From IMG/VR virus record IMGVR_UViG_3300049043_000106: DNA of 64,000 nucleotides; one strand, given 5' to 3'. The stretch comes from an uncultured virus (IMG/VR IMGVR_UViG_3300049043_000106) (taxonomy: Duplodnaviria > Heunggongvirae > Uroviricota > Caudoviricetes). The notes below the pieces were generated by a model, which saw only the letters and a list, made by a program, of their open reading frames with translations, was not told the origin of the DNA and did no database searches. Positions 3,632 through 54,145 of this stretch are shown here, piece by piece. The first letter of the stretch is position 1. Each line of letters begins with the position of its first letter. The position numbers and the translations under genes are program-made.

Positions 3632-4273
3632 TACTTGATGGCTACTTCTCACTCCTATCATCCCCTTCTTGTGGCTACATTGTGGACCTCACCGGGAAGC
3701 TAGGCACCCGTGAGGAGGATCTCGAATCCCTCTTTTGGCTATGAGACTCTAGGGTTTTATCCGTTGGCTTCGAAACCCCTTCCATTGGATCGGGCTCGTC
3801 GAGAGCATGCGATTTGACCCCCTATTTGTCTCAAGGGGATTCCTAGATCATGAGATACCCTCCTTTGAGGCTAAGGGATCTCTCTTGTGGAAATCTAGCT
3901 CGACGGGTCATCGCCGCGACGTCGCGACGAAGGTACCATGTCGACGACCAAGGACTCCTTGTATGAGCGACCTAGAGGGGGCAATATCTAGGTTGTCATG
4001 ATTACATGTGAGGATACAATGCTACACTACATAAGGACTAAGGCTTGTGGCTTTTGGGACTTCTTGGTTAGCTTGATCTTGGATCTAAGTCTCTCGGAGA
4101 CTTCCTTACAAACGGTGCTTATGAGCTCCCCCTTTGCTTACTTGAGAGCGTGAAGCCATTGTAAGATTGTAAGAGTGGTCATAACTCAATTGAGGCTATC
4201 GGCTATGAGGCTTGTGTGAGGCTTTTGGAACTATATGTTGAGTGTACCGCAACCAAGTGTGGGACGCCTAACA
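3632..4273 (+). repeat. 5' LTR of A' (first 13 nt missing)
   Basis: Matches 10528-11170; ends ...GCCTAACA; followed by TATTTGGCGGGGTCAAC (PBS-like). Confidence 0.93.
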
Positions 4274-7200
4274 TATTTGGCGGGGTCAACAAAGGTCTAT
4301 ATGAACCACCGAAGATCTTGGCCCAAGTATGTTGGCTTTAGGAAGCCGTGACATATTTGATGGGGTCAACAAGCGGACTTGTGAACCGCTATCAAGATTG
4401 AGGATTCAAGTGACGCATATTTGCGGGGTCAAACCAAGTTGAAGATTTAAGTACCAAGTACCAAGATTTCCAAGGGGAAGGAGTGAACGCGGTTCATTTT
4501 CTTCTTTGAAGCTTGAGATATCTTTGGTGAGCAAAGAGTGTGCTAGGCACATGCCCTCGGTGGTAAACCTATTGGTTCTCTTTGAGGATTGTGTGTTTCA
4601 CATAATCTAGGGATTGCTACTCGGTACAATCTCTCTCTTGGGACTTAATCTAAGACAAGGGATAAGATTGTGAGAGTCTTCACTATCAAGTTGACGAGGG
4701 GACAAGTGAACTCGGTTTGCTTGGTCTTTGAAGCTTGTCAAACTTTGGAGTGAGAGCCATAGTGGCAAGGACTCGCTTACGGTTTTTGTAACCGGCAATC
4801 TATGAATCTAAGGACAAAGATTTCCGAGGGGAGAAGTGAACGCGGTTCATTTTTCTTTGAAGCTTGGAAAATCTTGAATGGAAGAGTGTGGAAACATGCC
4901 CTAGTGGGTACACCCTTGTGAGGTGCTCTTCTAGATTCTACAAGGTGGAATCTCTTCCTTAGAATCCCGACAAGAAGTTTTCTACTCGGTAGAACTCTTC
5001 CAATTGACCTACCAAGTTGCTTGGAAAGCAATAGTGCGGATGGGAAGCTTGTGGACTTGAGATCATCAAGGAGGAAGGCGAGCTCGGCTCACACCTTACC
5101 TTTGAAGCTTGAGATCTTATAGAAAAGGGGTGTTCTTACACCATACCCATGGGTGGTACCTTTTCAACTTTAGAGATTTCTACTTGGTAGAAACTCTTAA
5201 CCCATCTTGAAGGCACAACAATTGCAAGTGGCATATGGAGCCAACAAAAGCTAAAGCCGAATGACCAAATCCAAGATTGAAGCTAGGAATCTCCGAGGAA
5301 GAGGGTATGACTCTCTTTTGAAGCTTGGATGATTTCAGACAAGGGAAGATTATGCCAAGTGTGTACTTGAGGAGTGCACTTACTTGTGATAATTTCTCTT
5401 CACCAACCTTTAGTAAGGTTAGTCCCGCATCTAAGAATCTTCAAAGGGGGAGGGGCAAATTTTGCTCTAAGTTTGAAGAATTCGAGTGGCGGCGAGAGAG
5501 GAAGGCACGGGTTTACCTTCGAGTGAAGTACCCCGGATAAGGCCACTTTGTGTCTATTAAAGACATAACCTCTAGATTCTTGCTCGGTTGAGAATCTTTA
5601 TTGTGAACCATGGCATTGAAACGCCTAAACATCTTTTGGCAAGTGTTCATTGATGAGGATGAGTTGCTTATCTACTCTCGGAGTAAGGGCGGCTTTGTAC
5701 TCACATGGACAATTACATGTGGTAACGGGATCTCCATAGAGGAGTACCCTAGGTGCCCTTGTAATAAGGAAAACAAAAGGAGGACTAGAGTGAATCGGTA
5801 CTCCGAAGGAAGGACACCCAAGGTCCTTAAAAGACTCCCATCCTTCTCCGTGATCAAATTGCGTAAAGCAAGAGAGATTCACTAAGGAGATTGAGAGCAA
5901 ACTTGGAGTGAGACTCCAAAACCCGGTTGATCTTTAGGAAGATCATACCACACCATCTGACTTGAACCTTTAGGAAGGTTGAGTCTATGTGAATGGTGGA
6001 AACAAGAGGAAAGGTATTGGAGATTTAGGAATCTTCAATTGAAGACCGGACCTCAAAAGGCCCAACACTAACTACTATCTCGACTTTGATGAGTAAGGGT
6101 TGTGAGTATGAAGCAACTTGAGGTGATGCTCATTGTTGCACGAAAGCAATCTTACCTTGCTCCCATAGTCAAATGATGTAGTGTGATCCTTGGATCAAAA
6201 AGGGCACATAGAACATTTTGGAAGAGTGAAGCCTCGGTGCACACTCTATTGTGGAACACAAGCTTGGCTTGTGCTTTTGAACCTTGTGGACCATAAACTT
6301 ACACCTAGGAAGCGAAGGGTGTTAAGTACCTTTGTGTGGAGCGCGAGGCGTTAATCAAAGGTGAGGAGGGTTAAAATTGCTTGCACTTTGGCTAGTGGGG
6401 AGGAAACTTTGTGAAAGTATGCCACCTAGCTTGTGTGATTCAAGTGATTGCCCTTGAAAAGTGACATACCCTCGTGAGGTATGCTAGGAATTGCTTGTGA
6501 AGTATGTCCTCGTGAGGCATACCTTGTGTGAGAGGAGGGTGGAGATTTCAATCTTCCCCGTGGAGCAATTTGTCTCGGACAATCTCCCCTCATTATGGGT
6601 TTCTCTAGTGAGAACACCTTCTTTTGGACCACCTTCCATAGCTCGGCTATGAAAGATGTTGAGTGTCAACACAAGTAGGGTGAGATTGAGAATCTACCCA
6701 AGGGTACGGTTGCAAAGTGCAACACCACTTGTGCACTCGAAGGGTAGATTTGATAATCTTCCCGAGGGGAACGGTTGTCAAAGGACAACACCCTCAAACT
6801 AGATCTTCAAGGAGATCAACTATCTTTTGGAAACCTCTGAGGTAACTGGTTCACTTTGAGGAGTAAAGGGCAAAGATCTTGAGAGATCTCCCACGAGGAA
6901 TCTACAAGGTAGAGAGTCTAGACCACCTCGTGGTGAGACGTCTAAGTGACTCCAGTGATTGAAGATCTTGTGTTTGGGAAGTTTTCATGGTAAGGGGGCT
7001 AACCCTTGACCCATAAAACGTTTGTGACCTTCAAAAGGATAGGCTATTGAGGTGATGCTCAAACCTTTCCCCTATGGAGACCTCACATACACCCAAAACC
7101 AATCCTTTTGCGTTGCAATTGGAAATCAAAGATCTTAGGCTTGAGTAAGAAGGCATTGAGCCTTCGGCCTACATTGTGTGGTAACAAGTGGTACCATTTT

Positions 7201-10514: not shown

Positions 10515-11170
10515 TGTTACACGTGGCTACTTGATGGCTACTTCTCACTCCTATCATCCCCTTCTTGTGGCTACATTGTGGACCTCACCGGGAAGCTAGG
10601 CACCCGTGAGGAGGATCTCGAATCCCTCTTTTGGCTATGAGACTCTAGGGTTTAATCCGTTGGCTTCGAAACCCCTTCCATTGGATCGGGCTCGTCGAGA
10701 GCATGCGATTTGACCCCCTATTTGTCTCAAGGGGATTCCTAGATCATGAGATACCCTCCTTTGAGGCTAAGGGATCTCTCTGTGGAAATCTAGCTCGACG
10801 GGTCATCGCCGCGACGTCGCGACGAAGGTACCATGTCGACGACCAAGGACTCCTTGTATGAGCGACCTAGAGGGGGCAATATCTAGGTTGTCATGATTAC
10901 ATGTGAGGTGACAATGCTACACTACATAAGGACCAAGGCTTGTGGCTTTTGGGACTTCTTGGCTTAGCTTGATCTTGGATCTAAGTCTCTCGGAGACTTC
11001 CCTTACAAACGGTGCTTATGAGCTCCCCCTTTGCTTACTTGAGAGCGTGAAGCCATTGTAAGATTGTAAGAGTGGTCATAACTCAATTGAGGCTATCGGC
11101 TATGAGGCTTGTGTGAGGCTTTTGGAACTATATGTTGAGTGTACCGCAACCAAGTGTGGGACGCCTAACA
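10515..11170 (+). repeat. 3' LTR of A'
   Basis: TGTTA...TAACA termini; direct repeat of 3632-4273. Confidence 0.95.
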
Positions 11171-11510
11171 TCTGCGCGTCAGCCAACAACGCCAAGGTGC
11201 CCCGGTTCTTCACTAGAGCAAACTCTTGTCTTGCCCATGACTTGAGTGGTGAAACCATTTGGTGTGTCACCTCACCCTGGAAGCTCATTTGGCCCCGTCC
11301 TAGAGCATTATTGAAGTGTAAGGCTCTAGCTCAGAGACCACATCTCCGGTGTTTGTGTTACCTGGATCTGGTGCGGCTGGGTTGACAAGGTTGCTGGTAT
11401 GCACCTTGTTCGCTCATACCCAACTTTAATTCCAGTTGTTCCATTGACTCAGAGGGTAATCGCTACTCTATTGGCCCCACCCCTAGCCAGTCAATGTGTA
11501 CTTGGACCCT
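11171..11510 (+). pseudogene. Degenerate Dam-like DNA amino-methyltransferase domain of element C
   Basis: ASANNAKVPRFFTRANSCLAHDLSGETIWC..PWKLI, then after frame changes PVLEHY..KCKALA..VFVLP..GMHLVRSYP..PVNVYLDP. Collinear with the domains in E and D; catalytic tetrapeptide not intact. Confidence 0.65.
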
Positions 11511-15445: not shown

Positions 15446-15649
15446 CACCTGGCAGTTGACTCCGGACCTCCGAGGCTCAGGACCCCGAGACTCCCAAGCT
15501 CTCAGGTCCCAACTCGTCCTCTGCCTGGGTACTTAAGCTCTCGCTTCTCCAGGGTTCTCCTATTGTGTTTTCACACTTCTGTGGACTTCAATCTCCTGCA
15601 ATCTCTACTCAATCCGACCACTTTGTCGACATGGCTGCCTTGACACCCT

Positions 15650-18600
15650 ATGATACAAGCACTGCCCCATGGCTCTCCACCCAAGGAGGGTCAGTTTTAC
15701 AACATTCAAGGTTGGCTGCAACATAAGGGCATTCGGATGTACAGTGATATGAGGGAAGCAAGGGGTTGGGGGTGGCATCTGGGCCGTGGACCAGCCCTCT
15801 TCAAGGAGGCCTCCCTTCCCTTCAGTTTCAAGGACATCCCTAACCCAAAGTGGTCCTTTGTGGTTATGGGAACTAGAGCTGCCAAGGACCCAGTGGATGG
15901 GGTCCAACCTCTGTTTGACTTCACTAGCAAGCAATGCTTAGTGTACCATCCTGCTAAGGATGGCGCTCCTGCAGAGGTCACGGCAGCCAGCCCTGTGGAG
16001 TGGGCTCGGTACAAGCACTACCGCGTTCGAGAAGCTCTTCCTGAGCTTGGGGCTACCTTCGTGCAGCGGCCCACCCTCGAACTGGTCTCCACCATGAGCC
16101 TTCAGCAGTACCTTCAAAGGTACTACTTTCCCCTCAGGTTTGTCAATTCAGACTGAGCGGGACATCAATTACTCCAAGCTCTCCCGAGTGGCTTCAGACA
16201 TAGCCACGATGCCGTCCCCTCACTTCTGGGAGGAGTACCTGGGTGACCCAGTGTACTATGACTTCCAGTCTCATACTGTCATGCGCGTGGACCCCGCCTC
16301 CAATACTGTCCTGAGGCACACCAATGCCAACGAGCCCTACATAACCACCCTCTTCGTCACGGATGCCCTCTACCTCCTGAGACTTCACAAGGCTGGCCCT
16401 TACCTGGCTGCAGCTTCTCCGTGTGTTATGAAGGCTCTAGGCTCGGGTGCTTCTTCTCAGGACTTGGAGCTCCTGGAAGACTTCAAGCTGGAAGCTCGAT
16501 GACTTCCACAAGGTGCTGTACAACACCTTGGGAGCCTCCACTCCGTTGGACTTCAAGCCCCGTGTGATTACTAGACCTCACCGGGACTTCTCATCCTTCG
16601 AACCCTCCTACGTTAGTGACAGCGTGAACCAGTGGGTTTCCTACATCAGGGGAGACTCCATCCACCCCCTGTGGACCTTCAAGAGGGACGAGCTAGAGCC
16701 ATCTTACTGGGAGACCTATGACCAGTCCCCAGTACCTGCTCTCAGGTGGACCACCTACTCCAGGACCTGCGGGTGGCTATCAGCCTCCTCAGTACATCTT
16801 CAATGTCTACGGGAACTACCTTCAACGTGTTCCCCCTCCATCTGACCTTCTCCTAGGACTCACCTCTTCTGAGCGGCGAGCCATCTGTGAGAAGCCCCTC
16901 AATTCTGAGGTGGCTGAGGACTCCCTCCTATACATCCAGTCCAACAAGGATGATTGGGAGATGCCTGCTGGCGGTGGGTGGGATAGTGATGATGAGGAGG
17001 TGCACCTCACCGTCACTCACGCTCAGGTGTCAAGACTCTCAAGGGAGACTCAGGACCTTCTCAGGTCCCAGCAACCTAAGGCACAGCGGTCAGCGTTGGC
17101 TGCTTTGGAGACCATCTCCTCCCAAGCCACGCCACGGCAGTCAACCTGCCAAGGGCCTCCGCCACAAGGCCAGAGTCGTCCGTAGTCCTAGCCCTGAGGA
17201 CCCTACCCCCACCAAGCGTCCCCGCCACTCCTCAGCTGCACCAGAGCCAGCAAAGCTTCCCGCACCCAAGCTCTCTCCTTTGGGTGTGCTGATGGAGTGG
17301 GTTCACAACCCCCACTCCTCTACCAAAAGGGAGGCTAGTGGACACCGGTCGGTCAACCTCACCACTGACACGAGCATCAAGCACGGTCAGTCTGACCACC
17401 GACACAGCCTTGGTACGCCACTTGCTTGCCCAAGACCCCCTCTACGGCATTGGCACCAAGATTGCGGGGATCCCACACCCCACCGACTTTGCCAAGAATG
17501 TACCTCCCCTCCTGACCTGCCGTCCAAGTTGGATAGGGGTGAGTTGTACAAGGCAATGTTGAAGGAACGGGCAGCACGGCGGGAGCTGGAGCGTCAGGAC
17601 CTTCAACTCAAGCAAGCGGCCACCACCCCGAGTGACCCTCATTCCTCACCCCGGTGCTGATGCCAGCTCCTCCCTCCTCACTCCTGCCCAAACCCATCAG
17701 GACCTCATCGATGCGTACAGGGCCACTCAGCCTAGAGCCCTTCCTGGCTTCTGGCCTCTCCCGTGCCCTGACCTCAAGGACTACCCGGAAGTTAACACCC
17801 GAGAGGACTTCCAGGTAATGCTAAACCAAGAGTGGGGCCGGTTGAGTCAGCAAGCCAGTGATAGGGAGGAGGAATGGCGACAGAGATTCAACGAGGCCAG
17901 CGAAAAATACCTTGACCTCTTGAACTCTTTCGAGTTGTTAGATCAGCGGCTAACAACCGTCCAGGACCTCCAATCTGGCCCAAGGCCCTCTACCTCGACC
18001 TGCCGGAGCCCGCTCAGCCCGTGCAGTCGGTCCTCAACCTGTCCAGTACCTCCCTCCGAGCTTCAGGACCCTATTGACCTCAGCCGTGAGGAGCTCTCCC
18101 CACACCCTAGTCCTGAAGCCCACGCCCATGAGGAGGTCCCCAGTCGAGGAACCCCCTCCTGACCACACTGACAGTCCCTCATCTTCCTCTCCTTCTTCGT
18201 CGGAGAAAGGTCAGTCTCAAGGGCAAGTCACCCCGCCCTTAACCTACAGTCCCATGACCGCGGGATTCACCTCAGCCAAGTGGTGGGCTTGTCACTTCTC
18301 TGCCACCCTTGGCTAGCCCTCTCCCGCTTCATGACCCGTCAGCTATGTGGACCTTCTTCGAGGCCCAAGCTCGCAGCTCGCCCCTCCCCTCCTACCAGTT
18401 CCTCCACTCTGTCTACCAGTCCACCGCCCCGTTGTCTCTGCCTTCCAGGCAGAATTGTCATCTCAGATGACACGGGTGGCCACCCTGGAGGCAGAATTGG
18501 AGACCGCCAAGCTCTCCGGAGGGCAACCTTGAGCAGATGCAGCTGGCCATCAACCGCCTTGAGGAGGTGGAAGCCCGCTGCACCTCTCTGGTTGCACAGG

Positions 18601-19032
18601 TCCAGCATGCCAACGCCTCGCTGGACCACCTCAGCGGTCTGTTCACCTCCTTCTACAACAGGCTTCAGACTGCCGTGGAAGCCAGCTTTCCCCCAACACC
18701 CCAACACAGTCTTGAGGGTACAGCGGGGGACATTCTGGAGATGGCCCTTGAGCTTTGGGAGGAGATGGCCCTCATCACCATTGCCTATCGGGAGCTCCAA
18801 GCCCGCCCTGTCCCTGGCAACCTTCCTCACCGTGTCTCCGAAGGTATCCAGTACTCTCCGGACGTGGATTGAGCACGCTCAGGAGAGGTACCAGGCTATG
18901 CGGGGGCAACGGGACTCCTCCCGTGCACAGGTGCGTGGCCTTCAGGCCACACTCACTGCTGAGGCTGAGCAGATTGGTCGCCTTACCTCCGGGGCTGACC
19001 AAACATCATCCCCCGGGACATCAGGACTTTAG
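15650..19032 (+). pseudogene. Additional sense-strand ORF region of element C (env-position, unknown function), frameshifted
   Basis: Chain of overlapping plus-strand ORFs (15650, 16140, 16447, 16718, 16887, 17632, 18537...) with protein-like composition, an S/P-rich middle and a coiled-coil-like end (QLAINRLEEVEARCTSLVAQVQHANASLDHL). Confidence 0.6.
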
Positions 19033-19110: not shown

Positions 19111-19681
19111 TGTAGGCGCTACCGGACCCTTAGGGGGCCTCAGGACCCTACCCTTAGCCCTCAGGACCCTCCTGAGGTACATGGTAATTAGGCCCCCGGC
19201 GGAATCCCCATCCTGTGGGCGCCGGTAGAGACTCTATTCATCCGTACTTGTGTGTTCGTAGCTTTCCCGCACTTGGGCGCGGTTAGTTCGGCATGCATGT
19301 TGGCTATTCATGGCTCAGGACCTACAGGAACCCTAGTATATAGGTTCCTTAGCCCTTGTTGTACGGGCAATGAGCCCACCGCGTGTAACACTGTTGCTAG
19401 TAGCACCCATTGTCCGTGACAAGTTGTCACCTCGTGCCCCGTTGTCGCCGGTGTCCAAGACCTCAGCCACGTGGACCGTTGGGGCCCACCGGCCGAGAGC
19501 CTTGGCTCCACCGGCTCTGCATTGTCGACGGCTGGAACCGGTTCCTGCCGGTTCCCGCAGGTAGGCTCGTTTTGGCTCCATTCTGAGCCATTCTGAGCTA
19601 TGTCTTAGGATGTGTGTTTTGCTATGTTTATGCTAGGTCTTGTAACGCCCATTATGCAAAATTACAACGGTCACTCCTATA
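19111..19681 (+). repeat. LTR between elements C and B1 (preceded by PPT, followed by PBS)
   Basis: AGGAAGGGGGAGGAGG PPT then TGTAGG...CCTATA; 19425-19670 matches 28690-28934. Confidence 0.8.
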
Positions 19682-19683
19682 CT

Positions 19684-19700
19684 TGGTTTCGGAGCCGGTT
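19684..19700 (+). other. PBS-like sequence, variant of tRNA-iMet PBS
   Basis: TGGTTTCGGAGCCGGTT 2 nt after the LTR end; canonical plant iMet PBS is TGGTATCAGAGC. Confidence 0.7.
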
Positions 19701-19829
19701 CCCACCAGCTTCTAGCTACTCCATTTACCATCTAATCCCCAGAATCCAGGAGGCAATTTAGCCTCTTCCTGAAGTGCTTAACGCAGCTGGTGGTGAGAAC
19801 CACCGGTTTAGGGCCCCTTAGGGCTTCCT

Positions 19830-20728
19830 CTACCAAGCTCCAGTGTCCTGGCCCTTGTCGTGTTGCCGTAGCCGCTGCTCCCACCAGCTGCGCCATCGAT
19901 GACCGTCAGGAGACGGCCAGATTCTCCACTCGATGACGACCTGCAAAGGTAAACAAGGTAAGATAAAACCTAACTTACCTTGTGGAAAGACGTTGCCGAC
20001 TTAGCCAGCTCTGACACCTGCACAAGAAGGTAAGTAAGAGATAACTTACCTGATGAATGAAGCTGGCCATGAAGGCCAGCTGGGCGAGAGGGCCGCAGAG
20101 GCCCGTGGACCTACGAGCAAAGACACAAGGTAAGTAATTCGAAAGAACTTACCTTGTGTTCTTCGAGAAGGGCGCCTCAGCTGCCGAGCGCACGGACGCA
20201 CGGTAGGCCAGTCCATGGCCCCAGCCCCAATGGCACCAGCCTGAGCCGGTGCCCACCTACACGAGAGATAAGGTAAGTAACAGAAACTTACCTCTGCAAG
20301 CGCTGACGCCTCTCGGAGGACGCCGTTAGCACCTGCGAGACGAAGAAGGTAAGTAATGACAAACTTACCTGGATGAATGAAGCCATCGGGACGATCCCGA
20401 CGGAGCTGGCGACCTGACAAAAGAAAAGGTAAGATCAGACTTACCTTTAAGTATGACTACGGTCGGTGACCTGCAAAGCAAGAAGGTGAAGTGCTGAGTC
20501 ACTGACCGTGGGGCCTGCGCCCTTGTGAACTCACCTGTTCAGACGAGTCGCTGCAGGACTTCCTAAGGCACTGAAGCCGACGTGTCTAGTCGACCGAGGT
20601 CCATCGCCTGTCGACGTGGTCAAGAGGGGACCGGTCACTCGAGTGACCGGCCTCGTGCGATACTTCCAAGTACCCCACCGACCGGCAGGACAACCGGCGG
20701 TGGAGTACAAGAAGGACGGCGGAAACAT
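19830..20728 (-). CDS. Putative antisense 8-exon gene/transcript with seven micro-introns (206-aa spliced ORF, no recognisable homology)
   Basis: Minus-strand GT..AG introns at 20471-20534, 20414-20444, 20333-20368, 20257-20291, 20111-20152, 20018-20049, 19941-19978. Manual splicing gives an open frame from ATG 20728 to TAG 19830. Confidence 0.45.
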
Positions 20729-20730
20729 GG

Positions 20731-20910
20731 ATTAGGGTTTTCGGGGGTTTCTGCTAAACCCCCGGCCCCAAAACTCTACCTTAGGGTTTTTCGAAAAACC
20801 CTACGTGGAATCTGGGGTTCCCAGCTGAACCCCTACACCCCTATTTACCCGAGGAGTCCCCGGAGCTCAGGGAGTATAAGGGGGCTCTAGGGTTTTGGGG
20901 TAAACCCTAT
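20731..20910. promoter_or_regulatory. Telo-box-like cluster (TAGGGTTT/AAACCCTA), possible promoter of the antisense unit
   Basis: At least five TAGGGTTT/AAACCCTA motifs in 180 bp; equivalent clusters at ~30140-30170 and ~53870-54115. Confidence 0.5.
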
Positions 20911-20946
20911 TTCTTTCAGGGTGTTTGAATTGAGTTTTTACACTTC

Positions 20947-21530
20947 AGCCGGCCTCCGGGCCCGGCGAAGCGCTGCAGTAAATTTTGCGGGCACTATGTA
21001 TTCGTTCTTGCGGCATTTACAGGTTTTCCAGATTGAGTTTTTATGGTTAAGCCGGCCTCCGGGCCTGGCGAAGCCATGCAGAAATTTTGTGAACGCATGT
21101 GTATTTTCGGCCCCCGGAGCAGGGTTTGTGTTTTTACGGTTAAGCCGCCCTCCGGGGCCGCCGAAACTCTGCCCAAATCTTTGTGAGTGTAGTGTTAAGG
21201 AAGTTTCGGAGGTACCGGTTACTCATTTTACTATGAGCCGCCCTCCGGGGCCGCTGAACCTATGCTCAAATTTTGCAGAAGTTACATATTCGAGTTTTTC
21301 GGCATTTCGCGGCTTATTTTATGGGCTTATCTTTTTACGCCGGCCTCCGGGCCCTGTCGAACCTGATGCCCAAATTCTCTACACGAAGTGCGGACTTTGT
21401 TTTTCTTCCTCCCCTTCATTTAAGCCGGCCTCCGGGCCCTGCCGACCTATGGTCAAATCTGGTTGGTGATATGGGGAATTCGGGTTATGTTTTAAGTGTA
21501 TGTATGCATTAAGCCGGCCTCCGGGCCTGT
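20947..21530 (+). repeat. Seven ~85-105-bp degenerate tandem units with core TTAAGCCGGCCTCCGGGCC (B1)
   Basis: Core at ~20947, 21047, 21140, 21234, 21338, 21420, 21510. Confidence 0.9.
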
Positions 21531-24500
21531 CTAAATGCTGCACAAATCATTTTTGAGTTGTGTATGTTAAGTGTGTTAGAATTTGGCACACTGCATACTA
21601 TGTGTTAATACATTTCTCAGCCATGTGTTCTTTGTTTTACACATAGAGCATCTGTGTTCATACACCCTATTGTATGAGTGCATTTATATATGTGTGTATG
21701 TATGACTGCACATACATGAGAGGGTATATGTGTGTGGTCTGGATGCATACACATGTGTGGTATATACTTATGTATGGCTTGCATTTATGTTGAATAAGTG
21801 TGGCATACCCATATTTAGCATATGATATTGTATTGGCCATTACTTACACTCTTTGTTTGTGAGTGTATGGCTGATATACGGACTCTCACGAACTGGGCCT
21901 GCAGGATGCATGGCGGGTATGGGTCTGGTGGATAGCGTTTGGACCAAGCTTCAAAGACCCTGCCTGGACTAGCCGTGATGCTGTGTGGAGTGGAGTGTGG
22001 ATCCCAGTACAGTGAGTGATTGGGATACACATAGAGGATGTTTGGATTGATATTACATTTGCACATAGGTTGCAAACATCCACACATCCTTGTCTATGGT
22101 ATTTTGTGACACCTTGCAGTTGTGCATTTTATGACACTGCAGGAGTAGTCTTGCATACCTGAGTGGTTGTGGCTGTGCCCAGGGCAGCCATGATCCAGTT
22201 GTGCTTGTGCCCCAGGGCAAGCCAACTGAGTCATGTATATATGACTCTTATCATTAGTGCATGCCGTCATTTCACTTCATTGTGTTATAGGATTTGCAGT
22301 GTTTATGCACCAATTGAGTATGCTATGAGTGAATGTGCCAAGTGGCCTTTCACCATTCATACCAATTGATTGTTTATGTATAATTGGGTACAATTTGTGT
22401 ATATGTGCTGATTGTAAGTGATAACTCACACGAGTTATCATTAAGCTTCGTCGGACTATACACAAAGTACCATATCTAGTTTGGGGAATTCAATCAGGAA
22501 ATGTATGGGCTATTGTGAGTGAATGAGCCCAGTGTTAGTCCACAGTGACAACACTCTGTGAACACACCACAACAAGTAGAGTTAACTTAGGGTAAACCCT
22601 AATTGACCTGCTTGATTGTACACCTCCAATTGGGTTCAAAGACCTGCTAGTTGATGTCACGTCTTGTGCATTTTCTGGGATAAGGGTAGAACCTGATTGC
22701 ACTCGTGGGTACATGTTTGCCCAACAAAGGTGTCGGATTAACCACCCTTAACGGCTGTGCCTTGTGGCTTTGCCGGGGTGTACAACCGACTGCCTTACCT
22801 GCTAGCAGTAGCCGTTCATACTTTTGAAAATTTTTCTTCCGGTGTACCCTCTTTTGGTACATCCAATGTAGTTGAAAAATTTAGCTCTCGGGGCAGGGTA
22901 GTTCTGATTTAGGACCCCTTGTGCCTCACCTCCTAGGCGTGCTAGGAAACGTTGGGTATGGATGTCGGTGACCCTATACCCTGAGATAACGCCAATAGGC
23001 TATAAGTCTGTAACCAGGACACAACGGTTCATGTTCACCGGCAATGGATGGTGAGGGCACTGATCCCCCTCACATCTAACCGGGCGAGTGACGAGAGAGT
23101 AGGAAGCCACCATAAACGTTGAGAGTAGGTGTGCTAGGTTGATGATTCAATAGGATGGGCCGTTGGATTAGGATATAAAGTGTTGAGAGAAACTTAGGTA
23201 TCCGTAGGCTTAGCATATGGTATGCATAAGCATGGGTACTGGTTTCTGGTTTCGGAAAGTAGTGTAAGCAGTTTGTAATCAAACTGTAACTCGGACACCG
23301 ATACCTTAGAATGGATAGCTCTGGATCTTATATAAGAGTCCAAAGAAGAGCATCCACCAGGTGGTGTATATGTCAAAATATATTTCAATTTCTGATTATA
23401 CCATACATGTTATGTATGAGTATAGGAGTAATCTTTCTTTTCTTGAGAGTATCTGTCACTTGACAAGATACTTGGTTCGTTGCTTTGCTTTCTTTGTCCT
23501 TTCCAGGAGCAAAGTAGAAACAACAAGGCTATGGGCAATAAAGGCCAGAGCTTGCTTATGTCTTGCATGTCTTGATGCTTGACCTCTGATGAGGTGCTTA
23601 CTTGAAGTGCCTATCTTATGTGTGAAAAAGAACGTACCCCAGAGATCTGTGAGATCTTGAAGTCTTGAACACAAGGGGCTATGAGTCCTAAGTGTTGTGT
23701 GTGAGGTCTAACCCTCTTGAGAAAGTAACACCCACAGAAGAATAAATGTATGGGATGTCAGTGAAGACATCAGGGTGTCCACGCATGAGGCATGGGTATC
23801 ATTTGGATATCCATAAATAATCAAAGACCCTATGTTTGGGTACAGTGGAAGCGTGGTGGGTCATGTAGACCCGAGTGTGATAAACTCTGTGTTTGTCCAC
23901 TATAACGTTGTATACCGGTTATGAAAGAGGTGTGATGATATTTACATCACCACTTACTCGTTGAGTAATGGTTGATATTACGATGTATACGTGATGATGA
24001 CTATGTATACTAAGAAAGAGTATGCATGTTGTCATTTCCTTTATAAGGTGTGTCGTTGAAAGACACAATTGATGATCATAATATGATGATCTTATTACAA
24101 CCTTCTTAAGGTCTGTATGTTTATGAGAGGCTCTTGAGGTCAGTCTTTATTGGTTACACCGTGTGTAAACCTCTGAGTTATATTGTCAAAGGTCTTACCT
24201 TAATGACCTTGGTATGGTCTTTTCAAGATCAGATGTGATGAGTCGTACCGTAGTCTTCAAACATGGATGTTTTGAGACTACCAGGTTACATTCAAAGTAT
24301 GATGAATTATGAGTACATATGAGTGAGACTTATGATTGAGGACATAAGGTCCACGGTATCATTTGTCTTGGTATGTCCCTTCCATTTGAGGGTACATGTC
24401 TGGTCATGAGTTATGACAAGTACGTCGTTTTATACGTGAAGTATAAACGAGTGAAGACATGGTGTGTCTTTTGGTGTCTCTGTGAAGCACCACTATGATA

Positions 24501-26429
24501 CATGTTGATGATGATATATGGTCCATGAAAATATATGACTATGTATGCTATTATTGAAGTCTCAAGGTCTTGAGTTAAACTGTGCAAGTGATTCTATCAT
24601 TAGGAGTGTTACATGGGCAGTGGTTGTCTACAAGACAAGATATGCCCAAGTGTGTATTGTCGGTATTACGTGTGCATAGGCACAAGTTGTCAACTTGACA
24701 AGAGTTGCCTTATGCAAGTAACAATGGTATGACAAGGTACACGTCACTTCTGTCTCGTGTCCAATTGGTATTCTCAATATGACATGTGTATCATGTCATG
24801 AGACTAACGTATGTATGGGTCAATATGAAGGACATATGTCTTGTATTGGTGATGTCATTGAGTCAAGTCTTGATATGATAACATTGTCAAGTTCTTGGTC
24901 AATGAGAAGTCTCAATGTGTGACTTACAATCAAGTTGCACATGAGGTATGAGTAAGATGTATGGTTGTCCATAATCTTATGTTGAATAATATGAGTACGT
25001 TATCGTACGTCTTCATATATTCAGGCTTCTGGTAAGCTGTGAGAATCATTATCATTATGAGTGATTAATAAGTCTTCTTTGAGAGAGTCATGATCTTGAT
25101 ACATCAGCTAGATAAAGATGTGTTGAGATCAATGTATGTTTCTGAGGTACATAGAATAGATATGATCATGAGTATTGTATCATGAATACTGTATTGCAGT
25201 TACTTTGAGTCATAATATGGTCAAGAGTCGTGTTGTGTCTCATTACTCTTTATGAATATCAGTCAAATGAATGTTGAGGTTATTGAAGTTGATGGTACAT
25301 TTGTAGAAGTACGCTCTTTGTGGTATTATCAAGTGAAAGTATGTATTTTATATACCCTATGCTGCTATACTATGAGGAGAGTATGAATATGAAGGTGTCG
25401 TCATCTTCAATACCTCATAAAGTGGTATTGCATGGGTAAACACATGCTCATCTTAATGTTGAGCAGGTACCAGGTACTGTCTCAAGGAGAGAAAATACTA
25501 GGCATGTTGCCAAAGTATGAGACATGTGACGGATAGATACCTATACACGATGAGAGTTTACACTTAAGTGTACTACTCGTTGAGGTGTCAAAGTTCATAT
25601 GTGAATGATTGATCAATCAGGATCTATGAAGGGAGACACACTCACATCAAAAGGTATCTTGAGATCCTTGAGGAATACGGAGGTATTGGTATTAGGTCTT
25701 GACCTTGAAGCTGAAGGGATAGGCTGAGGGTACGGAGACCCAAGTATGCCCATGACCCCAATATTGCTTTCCTCTTGGATACAGTCATGTGACGGTACTG
25801 TTCTTGAGTCTGTTATGTCGACTGGGTATTGTTTTTGCAGTCAAGTCAAAGTCAAGAGTACAAAGGGTAGTTGCCCTTTGGGGACATGTCCATAAGTCCC
25901 CGGAGCAAGTGTGTACGCTCCATGAGAGTGGATTCCATGATGTGGGACCACATTTACGTACTTCCTCTGAGGCCCTTGTTCCTTACCCTGATCCCTCTTT
26001 TGTGTTCATCTCATATGGATCAGAGGTGTCTTGCTTGCCTCAAGAAGTAAAAATGATGACCACTATAAAGTTGATAAAAGGGACATGAGTCATGTAGACT
26101 CAATTTGCCAAATCTTTAGGCAAAGACAAGTGGTATGTGTGTGTGACCCTATCCAAGACAGTCTGACACAACCGTGACAAAGGTCAGGTGTGAAGTCTGT
26201 GGGGTCACGATGCAAGTGGCATCAAGTTTACAGGTGCCTGACGAGGTGCCTTGGTCACTAGTCAAGAGTACTGGTGGTCTTGTGAAGAGTTCACGCTGTG
26301 ACTCTTGGTTGAGAGTGAAGAAGATTGCCCCTTCTTACTCCAGAGTATGTGGCCATAGTCCCCGTGACTAAGTGGCAGGTTGAGGTGGTCTACACCGATA
26401 CCTTAGGCCTTCCATGGAGGTCAAATGAG

Positions 26430-26885
26430 AAACGTGTGTTGACATTTATAGAGGAAAGTCGAGTGGTAGACCTGGCCTGTTGGACCCACTCGCTAGCTGG
26501 AAAGCTATGAGAGCGATGATACAAATGTCAACTGTATGCCTTACAATCCGGTGTAGGACAGTACTCCTGGTTCAGGACTTGTTCGATTTCTCAGTGGTAC
26601 AGTTACATTCCTGCCTGTTACTAGGGGCTCTGCCTATTTGGTGGGGCGTAACTGAGCAAACTGGCACCTCCGTGAGGAGATGGAAAATCCAGGGGCTGTA
26701 CCATGTGGCCACAATCAAGGACTGGAAGGTAAAAACATAGTGGGTATGTATTTACCAGGATGGCGGTAGTACCCACTCCTTCGCAGTGCCTTGTAAGCCG
26801 CCGCGGTGGTGTTCAGACCGACATCACCTGGCATGAGCGCTGAGACGGTAGGGTTAACCTAGGCCCGTGTAGGTCTGGCATACTG
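26430..26885 (+). ncRNA. Conserved structured cis-RNA element in the 3' UTR (copy in B1)
   Basis: Homologous to 50140-50530 and 59280-59740, with compensatory stem changes and a GNRA tetraloop. Confidence 0.55.
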
Positions 26886-28256
26886 GGTGTGTAGAGGGGG
26901 CTAGTCCTTTACATATCCTTGAACTTGTGTTGAGGGTTGTCCCACCTCACACAAGGAGGGTGATCCTGTCCCACCGTGGGAAGGTACGGACCCAGAGGTG
27001 GCATGTGTCCCTTTGCCACAAACAAATGGTTGGTAACCTTTGTATAGGATTACCTGCATGTTGAGAACAAAGTCTTGTACATGTCAGAGTACAAGTGGGA
27101 GTCACTGGTGTGTCAGTACTTGAAGACTTGTGGAAGTCTCCTTTATCTTCTGATGGCTTGGTATTGAGCCACGGTAAGATTCACAAAGTGAAGTGACTTA
27201 GTCCAATCAGGACAATCCAAGTGAGGGACATTGGTGTGTCAAGTGTGGTGGTCAAAAGTGGTCAGAGTCCTTCTCACATCTTGTGAAGATCAGGACAAGT
27301 ATAACGAGTATGTTAAGGGCTGAGTTATGAGGTTAACAGAGGTTAACAGAGATGGTATCTATGATACATCTCTAAGACTCACATGAGTCTTTATGAGCCC
27401 TATATCAAGTGAGCCTTTTCCCTTTCCAACCTCTTGATCCTCTTGCTATCTTCATGCATGGGTTGCATTGTAAATCAACCCAGTGTTGCGGCTTTGCCAA
27501 AGCACTGTTCACTATAAAAGTAAAGCTTGAAAGCTTGTGAAGATGAGTACTGAGGTGCTCAGTGAGTTATGGGCTTCTATGTCCATACTTGAGTTGTGTT
27601 TAACATCTCCCTGATGGAGGATGTTGGGGTACAGAGTGGCATGTCTTTATGTCACTGTATGAGTTGGATGATCATTACAACTTGGTGATGATCATGTGAC
27701 CTTTACTGAGTCACATCTTGAGATGTCTTTTATGAGTGGTACATTTGTACCAAGCAAGTGTTCTTGTGAGTCAACTTGATACCTTGATAGCAGCTCTAGG
27801 TAGGCCTGCCCTTAGATAGCCCAGAGATTGAAGAGTGGCATGAGTTGCCATGGAGTTGGCATGCAACCTGCATGACCATTGAAGTGAAGAGTACTCACCC
27901 CTACATCTTGAGAAGATGTTATGACTACCGTCTTGAGGGGGAGACATCATGAAGACATGTGGAGCCATGTCTGGTTTATGTCTATATTAGTGTTTGACAT
28001 TGGGAAGGTGTGGAGTGGCAGGTTTTTATTCCCCTGAGGGTTTTCCTGTCGAGGACAGGTTTTGGCCTGCTGAAGAGTCAATGGGGTCTTTTACTGTCCG
28101 CTAATAACCATGGTGTATGTCAAGTATGATGGCATACATCCTCCCACCTGCCTTAGTTATGTCTAGGGACATTATGTATTTGGGAACTTGGTGAACTTTA
28201 TTGATGTGGGCACCTACCTGTGTGAGCCAGGAGGCTCACCTTTAGGAGGGGAGAGT

Positions 28257-28935
28257 TGTTAGGACGCACCGTCCTAACAACCACTTTTCGCCCCTTATTT
28301 TTATCTCTGAACTTATGTCACGTCTGTCTTGGGGGTTGGTTCGAGGTCGTACTGTAGCGCCTCACCCCCTTAGTCGTCTGTCCACCCGTCTGTGTGTCCG
28401 TGTGTGTGGGTGTGCCAGGGCTCTCGTGGCCCGGGGCACTTGTGTTATAGGGGTGCTCGGGCACTAGGCCCTAGGCCCCCTCTTACCCGTGTTTAGCTGA
28501 GTGGTCACCGGGGGTGTTAGTCCCCTCGTGGGGCACCTCCTTGGTTATGTTGTGTCTTACCCCACGAGGGGCTCTAGGCCCCCGTGAGGGTTAGTGGGGG
28601 TGTCGGCCCCCTTGAGTAGTTGTCAAGTCCCACGTCAAGTCCCACGGCCGCTAGGGCCGTTACTGAGAGGGCCAGGTGACAGCTTTCAGTTGTCACCTTG
28701 TGCCCCTGTCGTCGCCGGTGTCCAAGACCTCAGCCACGTGGACCGTTGGGGCCCACCGGCTGAGAGCCTTGGCTCCACCGGCTCTCCTGTCGACGGCTGG
28801 AACCGGTCCTGCCGGTTCCTGCCGTGTGTGCTGTTTTGGCTCCATTCTGAGCCATTCTGAGTATGGTCTTAGGTGTGTGTTTTACTAGTGTTTGCTAGGT
28901 CTTTTGTAACGCCATCTATGCAAAATTCCAACGGC
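28257..28935 (+). repeat. 3' LTR of B1 (last ~10 nt missing)
   Basis: Starts TGTTAGG after the PPT; 3' part matches 19425-19670. Confidence 0.85.
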
Positions 28936-29429
28936 TAGCTTATAGTAGGTGACACATACTTGCAGGTCTTCCGATATTCACAATGATGTGAAATGACTGC
29001 ATGAAGTACATGATGGCCAGCTTGCCCGGGGCACAGAGCATAACCGGATCGTGGCTGCGCCTGGGCACAGCGACAACCACTGAGGGATGCACCCCGGGAC
29101 CTGCAGTGGCATGTCATGCTCAACCTAGACAGGAGATCACATTTACCTCAAACAAGGATGAGTGAATGGATTGCAAATGACCTATTGCATATGCAATATC
29201 CATTCAAGCTCTCTAAATCCCCAACTCACTCGGAAATAGGCAAGTAGCCTATTTAATCAATTGGAGACTTACTCCACATCCCCCAGGATCATAGCTAGTC
29301 CAGGTAGGGTCTTTGAAGCTTGGGCCAAATAGCTTCCACCAGACCCTTACCCGCTATGCATACTGCGTGTAAACTGAAGTGAGAGTCCTCATTTCCACGA
29401 GAGAGAATTTAGGCAGAGGTTCGAAGAGG

Positions 29430-30048
29430 CCCGGAGGCCGGCTTAATTGCATAAGCCCGAACCATAGAGCCCGAAAACACTCAGAAGTAACCTAACCCTG
29501 AACTCGAAATTTGAGCATAGGTTAGCAGCACCCGGAGGGCGGCTCACTGTAAATAGCCAACCGCTCCTCACCGGGCTGAAAACACAACACAACACAAAAT
29601 TTTGGCCATAGGTTCGGCAGGCCCGGGAGGCCGGCTTAACTCGGATAAAACACATAGCCGAACATACGTAAATACATACAAATGCTGGCCAAATTTCTGC
29701 ATGCCTTCGGGAGGCCCGGAGGCCGGCTTAAGCATGATGTCATGCACTTTCTACAATACCTGTAATAGCCGAGAAAAGCTATACACGAGTGTTGCAAAAT
29801 TTGCGGCATGGCTTCCGCCAGGCCCGGAGGCCGGCTTAACCATAGAAACAACTCTCACACGACAACCTGAAAATGCCGAAGAAGTTATACTACTCATGTT
29901 TGCAAAATTTTGGCATGGCTTTGCCGACGCCCGGAGGCCGGCTTAATTGTAGAACACTCAATCTAGAAGCCGTTGAATGCCGAGAACCGAGCAACTGCTG
30001 ATTTGCAAAATTTTGCATGGCTTCGCCGGGCCCGGAGGCCGGCTTAAC
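29430..30048 (-). repeat. Seven ~100-bp units with core TTAAGCCGGCCTCCGGG (B2)
   Basis: CCCGGAGGCCGGCTTAA recurs about every 100 bp on the plus strand. Confidence 0.9.
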
Positions 30049-31214
30049 CATGAAAACTAACACTGGAGGCTTGGGATGTAGGGGTTCTTGAGACCCTAAT
30101 TTCTCGGATAATCGTTCCCCTCAACCCCGGGGTTACTCACCCTAGGGTTTTAGGGAAAACCCTAAACCTAGCTATAGGTGTTTCGTGCGAAAACCTCCGC
30201 CGCTAACCCACCGGCCGGTCTCCGTGCCGGTGGCGCAGAGCACAAGAGGGGCCGGCCACGGTGCCCGTGCCCTGTAACACTTGGTGGAGTTCCCTTGAAC
30301 GGTGGTACTGATGTACCGCCTTAGCTATCTCGTTGGTCGCTCGTTGACCAGCGAGATCTCGACGAGGAGGCGCCTTGGCGCTTCGTGACGACAGCGACAC
30401 GAGGAAGGTAAGTACTTCAGTAGAAAGGTAACACTGACGTTTGTTCGGTGAGTGGCTTATGGCCACTTGAACTTGATTCTTTCAGGCGCCGCCCGGAGAA
30501 TGCAGGAGGAGGGGCCATTCATGGCCCCTCGGCCATTCTCCAAGTAAGTTGTGCACTTACCTCTCTGATAGGTCGTCACGGATTTTCAAGGGAGAAGGAA
30601 AACGACTTAACGTTTTTCTCTTTTTTTGTACGTAGGTCTTCGTTTCCGCGACTCGAACGACCGCCCACCGCCTCGAGGGCACGATGTAAGTTAGTCATTA
30701 CCTTTTTGTGTTGGGATGTCCAAACCCGTGCACCCGAGGGCTGTCATCAGCCTCGTCCGTTGCAACCTACTCTGCCGCCGAGGAAGTAGTATTCTTAGGT
30801 ATACTTACCTTCTCGCCTCCGGAGGATGATGGGAGGTGCATTCACTGGCTGACCCGGTGGGTTTGCAAAACCCCACCATCTTTGTAGGTAACTTGGCCGT
30901 CCGTCGAAAACCCTAAGGTAAGTGCTAGGGTTAATGCTTAACCCCCAAACCCTCTTGGTGAGGGTGTCCAGGTATGCAGCGAGGCATGACGCTCACCGGA
31001 CGGTCATCGACGGCAGGAGGAGCAACTAGAACAGAGCGGCTCCCGTGGGAACACAGCCCAAAGCAACCGCGCTAACCTTAAGAGTGGCCTGGAGGCCCTC
31101 TCTAAACGGTGTTTATTAACACCTTGCGTTTTAGCTTTCATATCAGGACCATTCTTGAATGAATGGCGTGAATGCAAGGAGGAGGAGGCGGTGGGAACCA
31201 GCTCCGAAACCAAG

Positions 31215-31819
31215 TGGAGGCCTGGCGAGGTGACTGTTAAGAATTTTGGCAGAGAAGCGTTACAAAAGACTGCCCAAAGAGCAACAACAGAACTCAAGTA
31301 GGTGTTGCAAAAGGCCCAGGTGGAGCCTCAGCAGAGCACCCACCCAACCGGCTCCTGGAGCCGGTGGGGCGCCGGTCCTCAGGAGGACCGGATGGACTTT
31401 GTGACCGGGAGGGAACGTTGGAACGACCTGACCGTTGGGACTTGAGTCCCACGGTGGTCTCCGACGACAGGGCACGTGTCGGTCACGTTGTGACCGCCAG
31501 GGCCCACTCAAGGGGGCTCGCTGCCCTTGACACTCGACAAAGACACACAAGGACAGGCATGCCCGGAAAACACTACGTGGAGCAAGACAACCCCTCTTCG
31601 GGGGCCTAGAGCCCCACGTGGGGTACAACACGCAATAGGGGGTCTGCCCAGGGCACGGGGCCGGACTACCCCTGGGACTCGACTGGAGGAACAGCACCAA
31701 CCGGGAGGCCCTGGGAGTACCCCCTCGCGGGCCCTAGCGCCGTGACAACTAACCACTGAGACAACGAAGAGTACACCCCGACACAACCCGTGGTCGGGGC
31801 CAGGGCACCCTGCGTGCCT
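31215..31819 (-). repeat. Partial LTR of B2
   Basis: Reverse complement aligns with LTR 61326-62068; ends CA 2 nt before the PBS. Confidence 0.8.
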
Positions 31820-33413: not shown

Positions 33414-35000
33414 ATGGCTACCAAGACCTACAAGAGAGCTAGCACTTGGGCTGCTGAGGCTGAGCACGCTCAGGTTAGAGAATGAAGCCCTTCGAGCCCG
33501 TCTTTCCGGTCGTACGGCGCCTTCCGGGCCCGGGGAACCCTCTACTCGTGTTGTTGAGGGACCCACTGATGATGACCCTATGATTGTGGACCCAAGACCT
33601 GATGCTGGAGCTACTAGGGCTGCTGATAACCCTACCGACCCTACGGGTGATGACGGAGCCCCTCCGGGGACGGATAACCCCCATACGGAGCACCCCAGTG
33701 GAGACCGAGCAAGAGAGGGTCAAGCTCAGGGTCCTGTTGTGATTTTTGGGGTTGATATCAGTGCCTTGAGGGATGCTGGGATGTCTGAGCAAGATATTGT
33801 CCTTGTGTTGAGTACGAAGGCCGGGAAGAGGCTCCGAGAGTACCCTGAGCAGGATAGGGCAATGCTTGACCTGATGAAGAGTATTAGGTTCCCCAATTTG
33901 GAGAGTGTGCCCAGTGATGAGGACCTTGATCACTTCTTTGATCAGGTCTCTAGGTTTGTGAAGGCCAAGGGTGAAGTGGGTGTGATTGCCAGTGATGCAC
34001 ATGTGATTGATCTGGCTTTGAATCATGCTAAGGGCCTGTCCTACAACTGCATCAAGGGGTCACTTTGAAGCATGGTATGGCTGCCACTTGGAAGCATGTT
34101 GAGGAGGCACTGAGGTTGGCTTTTGGTGACAAGAATCCAGCTGCAACTAGGAGGGCCAAGTTGGCTAAGTTGTGGTGGAAGGAGGGCACTCTTGGGGAGC
34201 ATGTTATTCGTTTCCGGGATGTGCTGTATGCCTGTATGCAAGATGCTGAGCCACCCAGTTCTGCTTATGCATGTGACCACTTCAAGAGGTCCATTAGGGA
34301 CCACAAGGAGCTCAGTGCCATGCTTGAGAGGAGGCCTGATTGGACTGATTGGACGGACATTGAGGAGTTGCTCAACATGGCTACTATGGCCTTTGGGAAG
34401 TGGACCTTTGCCAAGGACAGTGGCAAGGCCAAGGAGGGAGGCAAGGGTCACCATATGGCTGGTGGTGGAGGACGCAAGAGAGCTAAGTTTGAGGGCTCTG
34501 GGCATGGCTTTGGGGGTGGTCATCATGGGTTTAATGGTGGTCATCAAGTGTTCTCTGTTGGCTCACATCATGGGTCAGATAGGAGCAGTGGTAGCCACTT
34601 TTCCGGTGATGGTTATCGTGGCAGAGGCCGAGGTTTCAGAGGTAGAGGATGGAGGGAGAGAGGTGGCTATGGGAGGGGAGGTGGCTTCAGAGATGGTGGC
34701 TTTGGTAGAGGTTCAAGAGGCAGAGGTAGGGGTGGTCAGTCATGGTCACATCAAGGTACCCAGGGGAATGCGTCTTTCCAGTCTGTGGTTGATCAGGTTA
34801 GGTCAGTGGCTGGGCCTTCTGCATCCCAGGACACTGGTGGTTTGAAGTTGATGTTGGGGCCCAAGGCTGAGCAGTGGTACAAGGCCAATGATAGGTGTTG
34901 GAAGTGTGGTAAGCCTGGGCACAGCAAGAAGGAGTGTAGGTCTAGGATGTACATGAAGGCAGCTGACTTGCCTGCTGACCAGGATGACTGTAACATGGTT
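33414..35000 (+). CDS. gag: Gag of element E (frameshifted)
   Basis: ATG at 33414; capsid-like region; RGG-rich tract; CCHC knuckle CWKCGKPGHSKKEC at 34896-34937. Confidence 0.85.
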
Positions 35001-53827: not shown

Positions 53828-54145
53828 TACGCCGAACTTGGTCAACGAGCGACCAGGGGCACCCGACTAGGGTTCTGAGGCGGTACCGAAGTACCTGCCG
53901 CTAGAAGTTGAAGCTAAGGGGCACGGCTCACCCGTGTGGCCGGCCCCTCTCCCTCTGCTCTGCGCCACCGGCACGGAGGCTAGCCGGTGGATGCGGCGAG
54001 GGTTTTTCTGAAACCCTAGAGTGTAGTTTTGAGGGTTTTACCCTTACAACCCTAGGTGAGAGACCCGGGGGGTTAAGGGGAAGATTTTGAGAAATTAGGG
54101 TTTCAAAACCCTAAGACCCAGGGGCCTCCATTCGTGTTTTCATGG

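Follow-up and report, generated by a model that had tools for sequence, protein, structure and literature searches.

In a stretch of 64,000 nucleotides filed as an uncultured virus (IMG/VR IMGVR_UViG_3300049043_000106; hereafter the window), the leader of B1, a long terminal repeat (LTR) retroelement, carries seven short segments with the architecture of GT-AG introns. They lie on the minus strand between positions 19830 and 20728, antisense to the element. We tentatively interpret this array as a non-coding unit of the B-family leader that would be transcribed from a neighbouring cluster of telo-boxes and multiply spliced, an explanation to which we assign slightly less than an even chance.

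An antisense array of intron-like segments in the leader of B1

All seven segments fit the pattern AG|GTRAGT...CTTACCTT...pyrimidine tract...YAG|GT on the minus strand, and AG|GT stands on both sides at 7/7 junctions. Intron 1 (20471–20534) is 64 nt long, reads GTGAGT...CTTCACCTT...CAG, has a GC content of 0.58 and is without a strong hairpin; introns 2 to 7, each of which matches the strict pattern given below, measure 31 nt (20414–20444), 36 nt (20333–20368), 35 nt (20257–20291), 42 nt (20111–20152), 32 nt (20018–20049) and 38 nt (19941–19978), respectively. The internal exons between them are 26, 45, 41, 104, 61 and 39 nt long. The donors read AG|GTAAGT in six segments and AG|GTGAGT in one, the acceptors are CAG in five and TAG in two, and a yUnAy-type motif, CTTAC, is present 13–17 nt upstream of the 3' site in introns 2–7, with CTTCAC in intron 1. 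The pyrimidine tracts are composed of T, C and G only, with no AG, and the seven complete architectures are confined to one strand. As far as sequence goes, the ends, the extended donor, the yUnAy motif and the AG-free tract are those of U2-type GT-AG introns, the removal of which from RNA is here a prediction.

Excision of the seven segments leaves eight exons totalling 621 nt, with a stop-free frame of 206 codons that runs from ATG at 20728 to TAG at 19830 and has its stop in the last exon. Of the other two frames of the spliced product, one contains 5 stops and one 6; without splicing the frames are closed, while several partly unspliced forms are likewise open, up to 244 codons. Restoration of one frame across all eight exons had a probability of 0.007 by shuffling and of 0.008 when deletions of equal size were placed at random. 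The segment coordinates, the lengths and the 206-residue frame are exactly those of the first-pass annotation, which a model had made from the sequence. An RNA that has to evade nonsense-mediated decay (NMD) could be expected to carry such a frame, free of stops up to the last exon.

The strict pattern, GTAAGT-N4-14-CTTACCTT-N5-20-YAGGT, had six matches in the 64 kb, all inside the array, and none in 100 shuffles. A loose intron regular expression placed 6 of its 12 minus-strand matches in the window within the array's 500 nt, and this concentration of both kinds of match indicates that the array is real and beyond chance. Exons and introns also differ in composition, the GC content being 0.62 in the exons and 0.34–0.42 in introns 2–7, which contain 45% T on the minus strand and have loops that are U-rich on that strand only. 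Tandem Repeats Finder reported no array within 19830–20728, a search of Rfam gave no matches, and no further array-like unit was found elsewhere in the 64 kb apart from the homologue in a second copy, B3, described below. A simple tandem repeat was rejected because the exons are dissimilar (1/28 pairs alike, exons 3 and 6).

This lack of similarity among the exons would also be expected if the six short introns stemmed from repeated insertion of one tiny introner-like element into AG|GT sites, as would the AGGT flanks on both sides of 7/7 units and the GTAAGTT...TTACTTACCTT that the units share. However, what the units have in common amounts to no more than the splice signals and the complement of these, and outside the B3 homologue no copy lies elsewhere in the 64 kb, where near-identical copies in unrelated genes, the criterion for such elements, were also not found. 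In addition, the 13 loci that a two-intron pattern retrieved from metagenome contigs are unrelated, none of them being of the B family, and we regard an introner-like origin as very unlikely. A single-intron pattern gave 106 matches in viral contigs, each single and unrelated. One metagenome contig (L110:228–530, minus strand of the locus) contains about six tandem 50-nt units with the same design of a hairpin between donor and anti-donor, each consisting of a 32-nt consensus micro-intron-like segment (GTAAGT...ACTTACCTTGCTGACAG) and an 18-nt spacer; this likeness is partly one of ascertainment, as the search pattern itself demanded these motifs.

The window consists of nested Ty3/gypsy chromoviruses, all with their gag-pol on the plus strand, and no host gene was found in its 64 kb. 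B1 is a plus-strand LTR element of about 9.5 kb, with the array about 130 nt inside its primer-binding site (PBS). The 5' LTR was delimited at 19422–19682 (plus; the aligned part, the true start of which may lie slightly further left, with an end that aligns with the LTR ends of B3 and of a third copy, B2) and the 3' LTR at 28688–28934 (plus; aligning with the LTRs of B2 and B3), the identity between 19422–19670 and 28688–28934 being 89%. The LTR copies of the B family (4/4) have an invariant TTGTAACGC some 85 nt ahead of the LTR end, at approximately 19590–19600, 28860–28870, 61990–62000 and 31250–31260.

Immediately 3' of the 5' LTR of B1 lies a PBS-like stretch, TTGGTTTCGGAGCCGGTTCCCACC (19683–19706, plus). 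The sequence TTGGTTTCGGAGCC is found 0–2 nt past the LTR in both B1 and B3, where the PBS-like stretch (31212, minus) differs from that of B1 by one base, and behind the 5' LTR of E3, an autonomous chromovirus whose gag-pol sets the strand, lies a near-identical TTGGTTTTTGGAGC. The E3 motif supports plus as the sense strand of B1, so that the array is most probably antisense and situated in the leader of an LTR retroelement, in line with the orientation and placement first proposed for it. A sense-oriented array near the 3' LTR was considered and rejected on the strand set by the E3 PBS-like motif. ARAGORN found no tRNAs in the window, and hence no tRNA match to the PBS-like stretch there, and a PBS pattern gave no matches in viral contigs or in metagenome contigs.

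The interior of B1 (21469–29557) contains no open reading frame (ORF) of at least 120 residues and has no tblastn similarity to the gag or pol of the window, so that B1, without gag and pol in its interior, is non-autonomous. Ahead of its 3' LTR a weak GAGAGGGCCAGG is a polypurine tract candidate only, and no clean target-site duplication was found at the element ends. An autonomous element, E4, has leader and 3' segments in common with the B family, and to judge from these features B1 is a non-autonomous member of a chromovirus-associated family.

A telo-box cluster had been noted just upstream of the unit, and we found five AAACCCTA matches there (20733–20909, with no strand assigned), two of which stand head to head in a perfect palindrome of 22 nt (TAGGGTTTTTCGAAAAACCCTA, 20782–20803). 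In the whole window AAACCCTA has 14 matches against 2.2 expected, mostly in the clusters of B1, B2 (54011–54113) and B3 (30143–30164). The telo-boxes are enriched and clustered beside the unit at the sequence level, and are a candidate antisense promoter. Another perfect palindrome, of 20 nt, lies in exon 1 (CCGGTCACTCGAGTGACCGG, 20631–20650). Beyond the cluster B1 has an array of about 100-nt tandem units (20930–21550, plus), a repeat containing GGGCCCGGAGGCCGGC that is common to B2 (54134–54800) and B3 (29427–30067); in the soil-metagenome run described below its word depth, up to 824, is by far the highest of the whole stretch, and it may also occur as a satellite. At the opposite end of the unit, TGTAA at 19662–19666 (minus), the sole such pentamer in the 430 nt after the stop, is a possible polyadenylation signal of the predicted antisense RNA. 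TGTAA is the polyadenylation signal of green algae, and TGTAA-type motifs in the LTRs of the B family and E3 may be a hint to the host; the LTR end of E3 has two TTGTAAG.

Family copies and protein-level constraint

B2 (about 53919–62062) is collinear with B1 over the full length of B1, with 67–82% identity; the telo-boxes are retained in it, as is the beginning of exon 1, and it is truncated at about 53840. B3 is inverted (LTR 31810–31190), and its leader (30075–31236, on the plus strand, which is the antisense strand of B3) contains telo-boxes, a homologue of the first exon, seven micro-intron-like motifs and the PBS. Along the minus strand of B1 the order is the 100-nt tandem repeats, telo-boxes, first exon, array, PBS and LTR, and the order in B3 is the same. 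Two of the seven motifs of B3 still read GT...YAG (about 30408–30476 and 30545–30572), and the others have lost the donor or the acceptor; since B3 is interrupted by B1, it is the older copy and dead. The 3' half of intron 1 aligns with B3 30446–30498, CAG|G being kept, with a score of 39 against a shuffle maximum of 36. A global MAFFT alignment of the leader of B1 with that of B3 gave no usable information inside the array.

Further copy variants came from one soil-metagenome DNA run, with contigs placed at a likeness of at least 80%; among public sequencing runs it was the only one listed as containing part of this stretch, with a share of 0.05. A total of 157 contigs were placed (23 at 99% or above, 38 at 95–99%, 49 at 90–95% and 47 below 90%), and as these contigs differ, the leader is present in many variant copies. 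The variant counts given here are among the 40 differences listed, beyond which there are 86 more. Within 19941–20728 there were 20, of which 6 fell in introns and 14 in exons. The six intron variants comprise a TAG>CAG change at an acceptor, four G>T and one A>T in loops or tracts, and none touches GT, AG or CTTAC; in intron 5, five copy variants keep YAG or add pyrimidines. A lack of GT/AG conservation among family copies had been named beforehand as speaking against the proposal; none of the six variants breaks a signal, which points the other way. As the core signals make up about one sixth of the array positions, this sparing among copies gives mild statistical support only. The run had no cover over 20472–20605, its DNA contigs showed no joint at intron borders, and one contig skips 71 nt, the size of a unit, from 20258 to 20330. 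Together with the layout in B3 and the metagenome copies, the telo-boxes and the partial first exon of B2 make the array a feature of the family.

The 14 listed exon variants are distributed 8/5/1 over codon positions 1, 2 and 3, and 13 of them alter the residue. The ATG of B1 is replaced by TAGG in B2 and B3, and the last exon differs between B1 and B3 by indels of 8 and 5 nt. Pfam gave no match for exon 1, exon 5, exon 8 or a 136-codon unspliced frame, and the exon 1 peptide had two matches among 1.84 billion representatives, both of them repeat artefacts, and no true homologue. These results bear on the possibility that the unit is a real antisense accessory gene of 206 residues, the leader counterpart of the extra ORFs in Grande, RIRE2, Retand and the fungal brtn. 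Such a gene would account for a frame that stays open over eight exons and ends in the last one (P about 0.007), and antisense accessory ORFs are described as common in Ty3/gypsy elements in passages of PMC7264820 and PMC11963269. Against it stand the replaced start codon, the indels, the residue-changing variants and the empty searches, together with the partly unspliced forms that are open too, and we consider this gene improbable. A conserved protein is disfavoured and is not supported by the copies, among which no protein-level constraint was seen. The first-pass annotation had offered a choice between a small antisense gene and a heavily spliced non-coding transcript; the former gives way before the exon variants, the missing ATG and the absence of Pfam matches, while the antisense leader array holds as a family trait.

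Alternatively, the element could have captured a host housekeeping gene in reverse orientation, the 5' end of which now decays in the leader, with the telo-box promoter and the short introns as relics that play no part in the element. A telo-box cluster near the start of an intron-rich unit resembles plant translation-related genes, and this was counted in favour of capture. LTR elements are also known to capture genes, as stated in the relevant part of PMC7264820. The searches with the exons and the unspliced frame nevertheless gave no Pfam match, that with the exon 1 peptide gave no true homologue, and six of the introns have an 18-nt consensus and a hairpin design in common, whereas the introns of a host gene are varied. 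Moreover, among the differences listed the copies vary less in the signals than in the exons, and the layout is common to copies that are only 67–86% alike elsewhere. Capture is, in our estimate, as improbable as the accessory gene.

Donor–branch hairpins and the likelihood of splicing

In introns 2–7, the donor together with the last exon bases (e.g. CAAGGTAAGT) is the reverse complement of the presumed branch-site motif (ACTTACCTTG). The resulting hairpins, of 8–10 bp in 6/7 units, had z-scores of −2.1 to −3.6 relative to shuffles: 9 bp in introns 2, 4 and 7 (−2.9, −2.5 and −3.6), 8 bp in introns 3 and 6 (−2.4 and −3.5) and 10 bp in intron 5 (−2.1). The exon bases −3/−4 covary with the bases after CCT (AAAG/CTTT, CAAG/CTTG). 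This hairpin between the 5' splice site and CTTACCTT in each short intron is a newly recognised feature of the array. Because the stem is palindromic, the plus strand has consensus donors as well, GGTAAGT being found at 20029, 20129, 20272 and 20348.

The hairpins suggest another explanation, that the units are palindromic RNA or DNA modules (AGGTAAGT-loop-ACTTACCT hairpins with a sense-strand purine tract) that would act on the sense genomic RNA or on the DNA, in recruiting the U1 small nuclear ribonucleoprotein against polyadenylation in the 5' LTR, as packaging or dimerisation hairpins, or as protein-binding palindromes. The antisense 'introns' would in that case be a by-product, too short ever to be spliced. 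In HIV-1, U1 at the leader donor suppresses the poly(A) site of the 5' LTR, a parallel that we counted for these modules. The stems with their covarying exon bases, the plus-strand consensus donors behind purine-rich tracts, the additional perfect palindromes of the leader (20631–20650 and 20782–20803) and a length of 31–42 nt, very short for splicing, all agree with it. It leaves unexplained, however, the constant short spacing of the YAG|GT in 7/7 units, the AG-free tracts, the loops that are U-rich on the minus strand only and the frame restored over eight exons, and the listed tract variants among copies all shift toward pyrimidine on the minus strand. We judge modules of this kind unlikely, while giving them appreciable weight. 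Because the T-rich loops and tracts, the AG-free tracts, the YAG|GT in 7/7 units and the GC contrast between exons and introns are strand-asymmetric, the intron reading is preferred over a pure hairpin reading.

Several observations weigh against introns that are in use. The signal is partly strand-symmetric, given the plus-strand donors that arise from the palindrome, and both the donor and the branch site would be buried in the hairpin, out of reach of U1 and U2. Alignment supports orthology of B1 and B3 for intron 1 only, the other local alignments being motif-driven and non-collinear. The best named relatives of one pol of the window are from Closterium, Solanum, Tanacetum, Chromochloris and Astrephomene, at 42–49% identity, and the Atlas lead points weakly toward Streptophyta, suggesting that the host is probably of the green lineage; the reverse transcriptase of E4 had no relative in viral contigs, and the gag of E3 had no match at E ≤ 1e-10 among near-length proteins. 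Goodall and Filipowicz reportedly set the working minimum for intron length in land plants at about 70 nt in 1990. Introns of 31–42 nt, with only 14–25 nt from donor to branch, are below that minimum, and, since the pol relatives are of the green lineage and the introns very short, the host may not splice them. The branch consensus of plants is CTRAY, from which CTTAC departs. Because the lengths fall below the minimum and the hairpin would compete with U1 and U2, splicing of the seven segments has, by our reading of the sequence, less than even odds.

If the array is nevertheless a multiply spliced, non-coding antisense unit, as we tentatively prefer, the telo-box cluster would be the promoter of a minus-strand RNA that crosses eight GC-rich exons and seven U-rich GT-AG introns toward the PBS and the 5' LTR. 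The introns would survive retrotransposition, since the genomic RNA is the opposite strand, and selection would keep the splice signals in active copies and let them decay in dead ones. The product would most likely be a spliced non-coding RNA, or else a frame kept merely stop-free, and not a conserved protein. The hairpin might help to define such short introns, or might mask the mirror-image donors of the sense transcript. If the unit affects the element, it could do so through antisense control of copy number or by resembling a gene and so avoiding silencing. RNA interference has been discussed in the literature as recognising transposon RNA in a way linked to splicing; gene-like chromatin, or protection from silencing through splicing, as the first-pass annotation had imagined it, is conjecture.

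In its boldest form, the proposal would make the 900 nt a portable 'intron cassette', with a telo-box promoter and seven self-hairpinned introns that are truly spliced at 31–42 nt, well under the minimum usual in the green lineage. Through its dense splicing and its stop-free frame closed only in the last exon, the antisense RNA would then mimic a housekeeping message, being exported, exempt from NMD and unflagged by splicing-linked silencing, and would shield the 5' end of the element from silencing or tune its copy number. Such a cassette seems to us rather unlikely. If the junctions are used, B1 would be an LTR element with a multi-intron non-coding antisense unit kept in its leader, and would offer a test bed for the minimal length of an intron with ideal signals and a donor pre-paired to the branch region, for splicing density as a 'self' mark in silencing, and for the roles of antisense RNA for retrotransposons. 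If they are unused, what stands is a repeated donor/anti-donor hairpin, a conserved leader structure still unexplained.

Other elements of the window showed further features. Downstream of the chromodomain of element 2, a GC-rich run of overlapping ORFs extends over 3.4 kb (15644–19032, plus); it has no Pfam match and only weak look-alikes in the Atlas, which are uncharacterised Streptophyta proteins, and may be a decayed extra gene of element 2. The leader of E3 (33415–34068) contains overlapping ORFs of 217 residues on the plus strand and 194 residues on the minus strand, neither with a Pfam match; weaker intron-like motifs, few in number, also occur on its minus strand. A pair of LTRs at 3632–4274 and 10528–11171, 98.9% identical, flanks a 6.2-kb AT-richer interior without ORFs. 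Its PBS-like sequence (TTTGGCGGGGTC) is not that of the B family and its polypurine tract is clear, and the whole belongs to another family as a young, non-autonomous element.

Comparison with known systems

A literature search of limited coverage found no multi-intron antisense unit located in the leader of an LTR element. Antisense units at the 5' ends or LTRs of retroelements include human L1 ORF0, which has splice donors, and HTLV-1 HBZ. They resemble the B1 unit in having an antisense promoter near the element end and splicing of the antisense RNA, both of which are predictions in B1, and differ from it in their one or few ordinary introns, their active protein products and their mammalian hosts. 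An intron-containing antisense gene, brtn, is said to have been described by Zhao et al. in 2011 in a fungal chromovirus, that is, a Ty3/gypsy element with a chromodomain.

HTLV-1 HBZ is also mentioned in PMC11963269. Extra ORFs in antisense orientation in plant Ty3/gypsy elements (Grande gene23, RIRE2, Retand and PvRetro13) lie between pol and the 3' LTR, and are described in the portions of PMC7264820 and PMC11963269 that concern them as continuous, at least 600 nt long and often endowed with a TRP28 or Smc domain; the term 'intron' has no occurrences in the texts of these two papers. Going by those portions, the B1 unit is like them in being a family-conserved antisense unit within an LTR element with its own promoter, which in B1 is a candidate, and unlike them in its location in the 5' leader, its seven predicted introns and the absence of protein-level conservation. 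Neither the location between pol and the 3' LTR nor the conserved protein that characterise an aORF-3R was found for the B1 unit.

The closest known parallel appears to be the antisense introns of the Drosophila element TART. According to the sections of Maxwell et al. (2006; PMC1636488) on these transcripts, the antisense RNAs of TART-A have eight introns in untranslated regions, with lengths of 53–104 nt, plus one of 489 nt; the TART introns have good consensus sites, are documented by expressed sequence tags (ESTs) and differ little between diverged subfamilies in their sizes and their spacing, and those sections report no significant ORF. As far as that account goes, both systems have several short consensus introns that are antisense, untranslated and present across diverged copies, the B family being known here from sequence alone. 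TART is a non-LTR telomeric element of an insect with EST-documented introns, whereas B1 is of the LTR type and its introns are predicted; and, in contrast to TART as described there, B1 has hairpinned introns of 31–42 nt, packed within 900 nt behind a cluster of telo-boxes.

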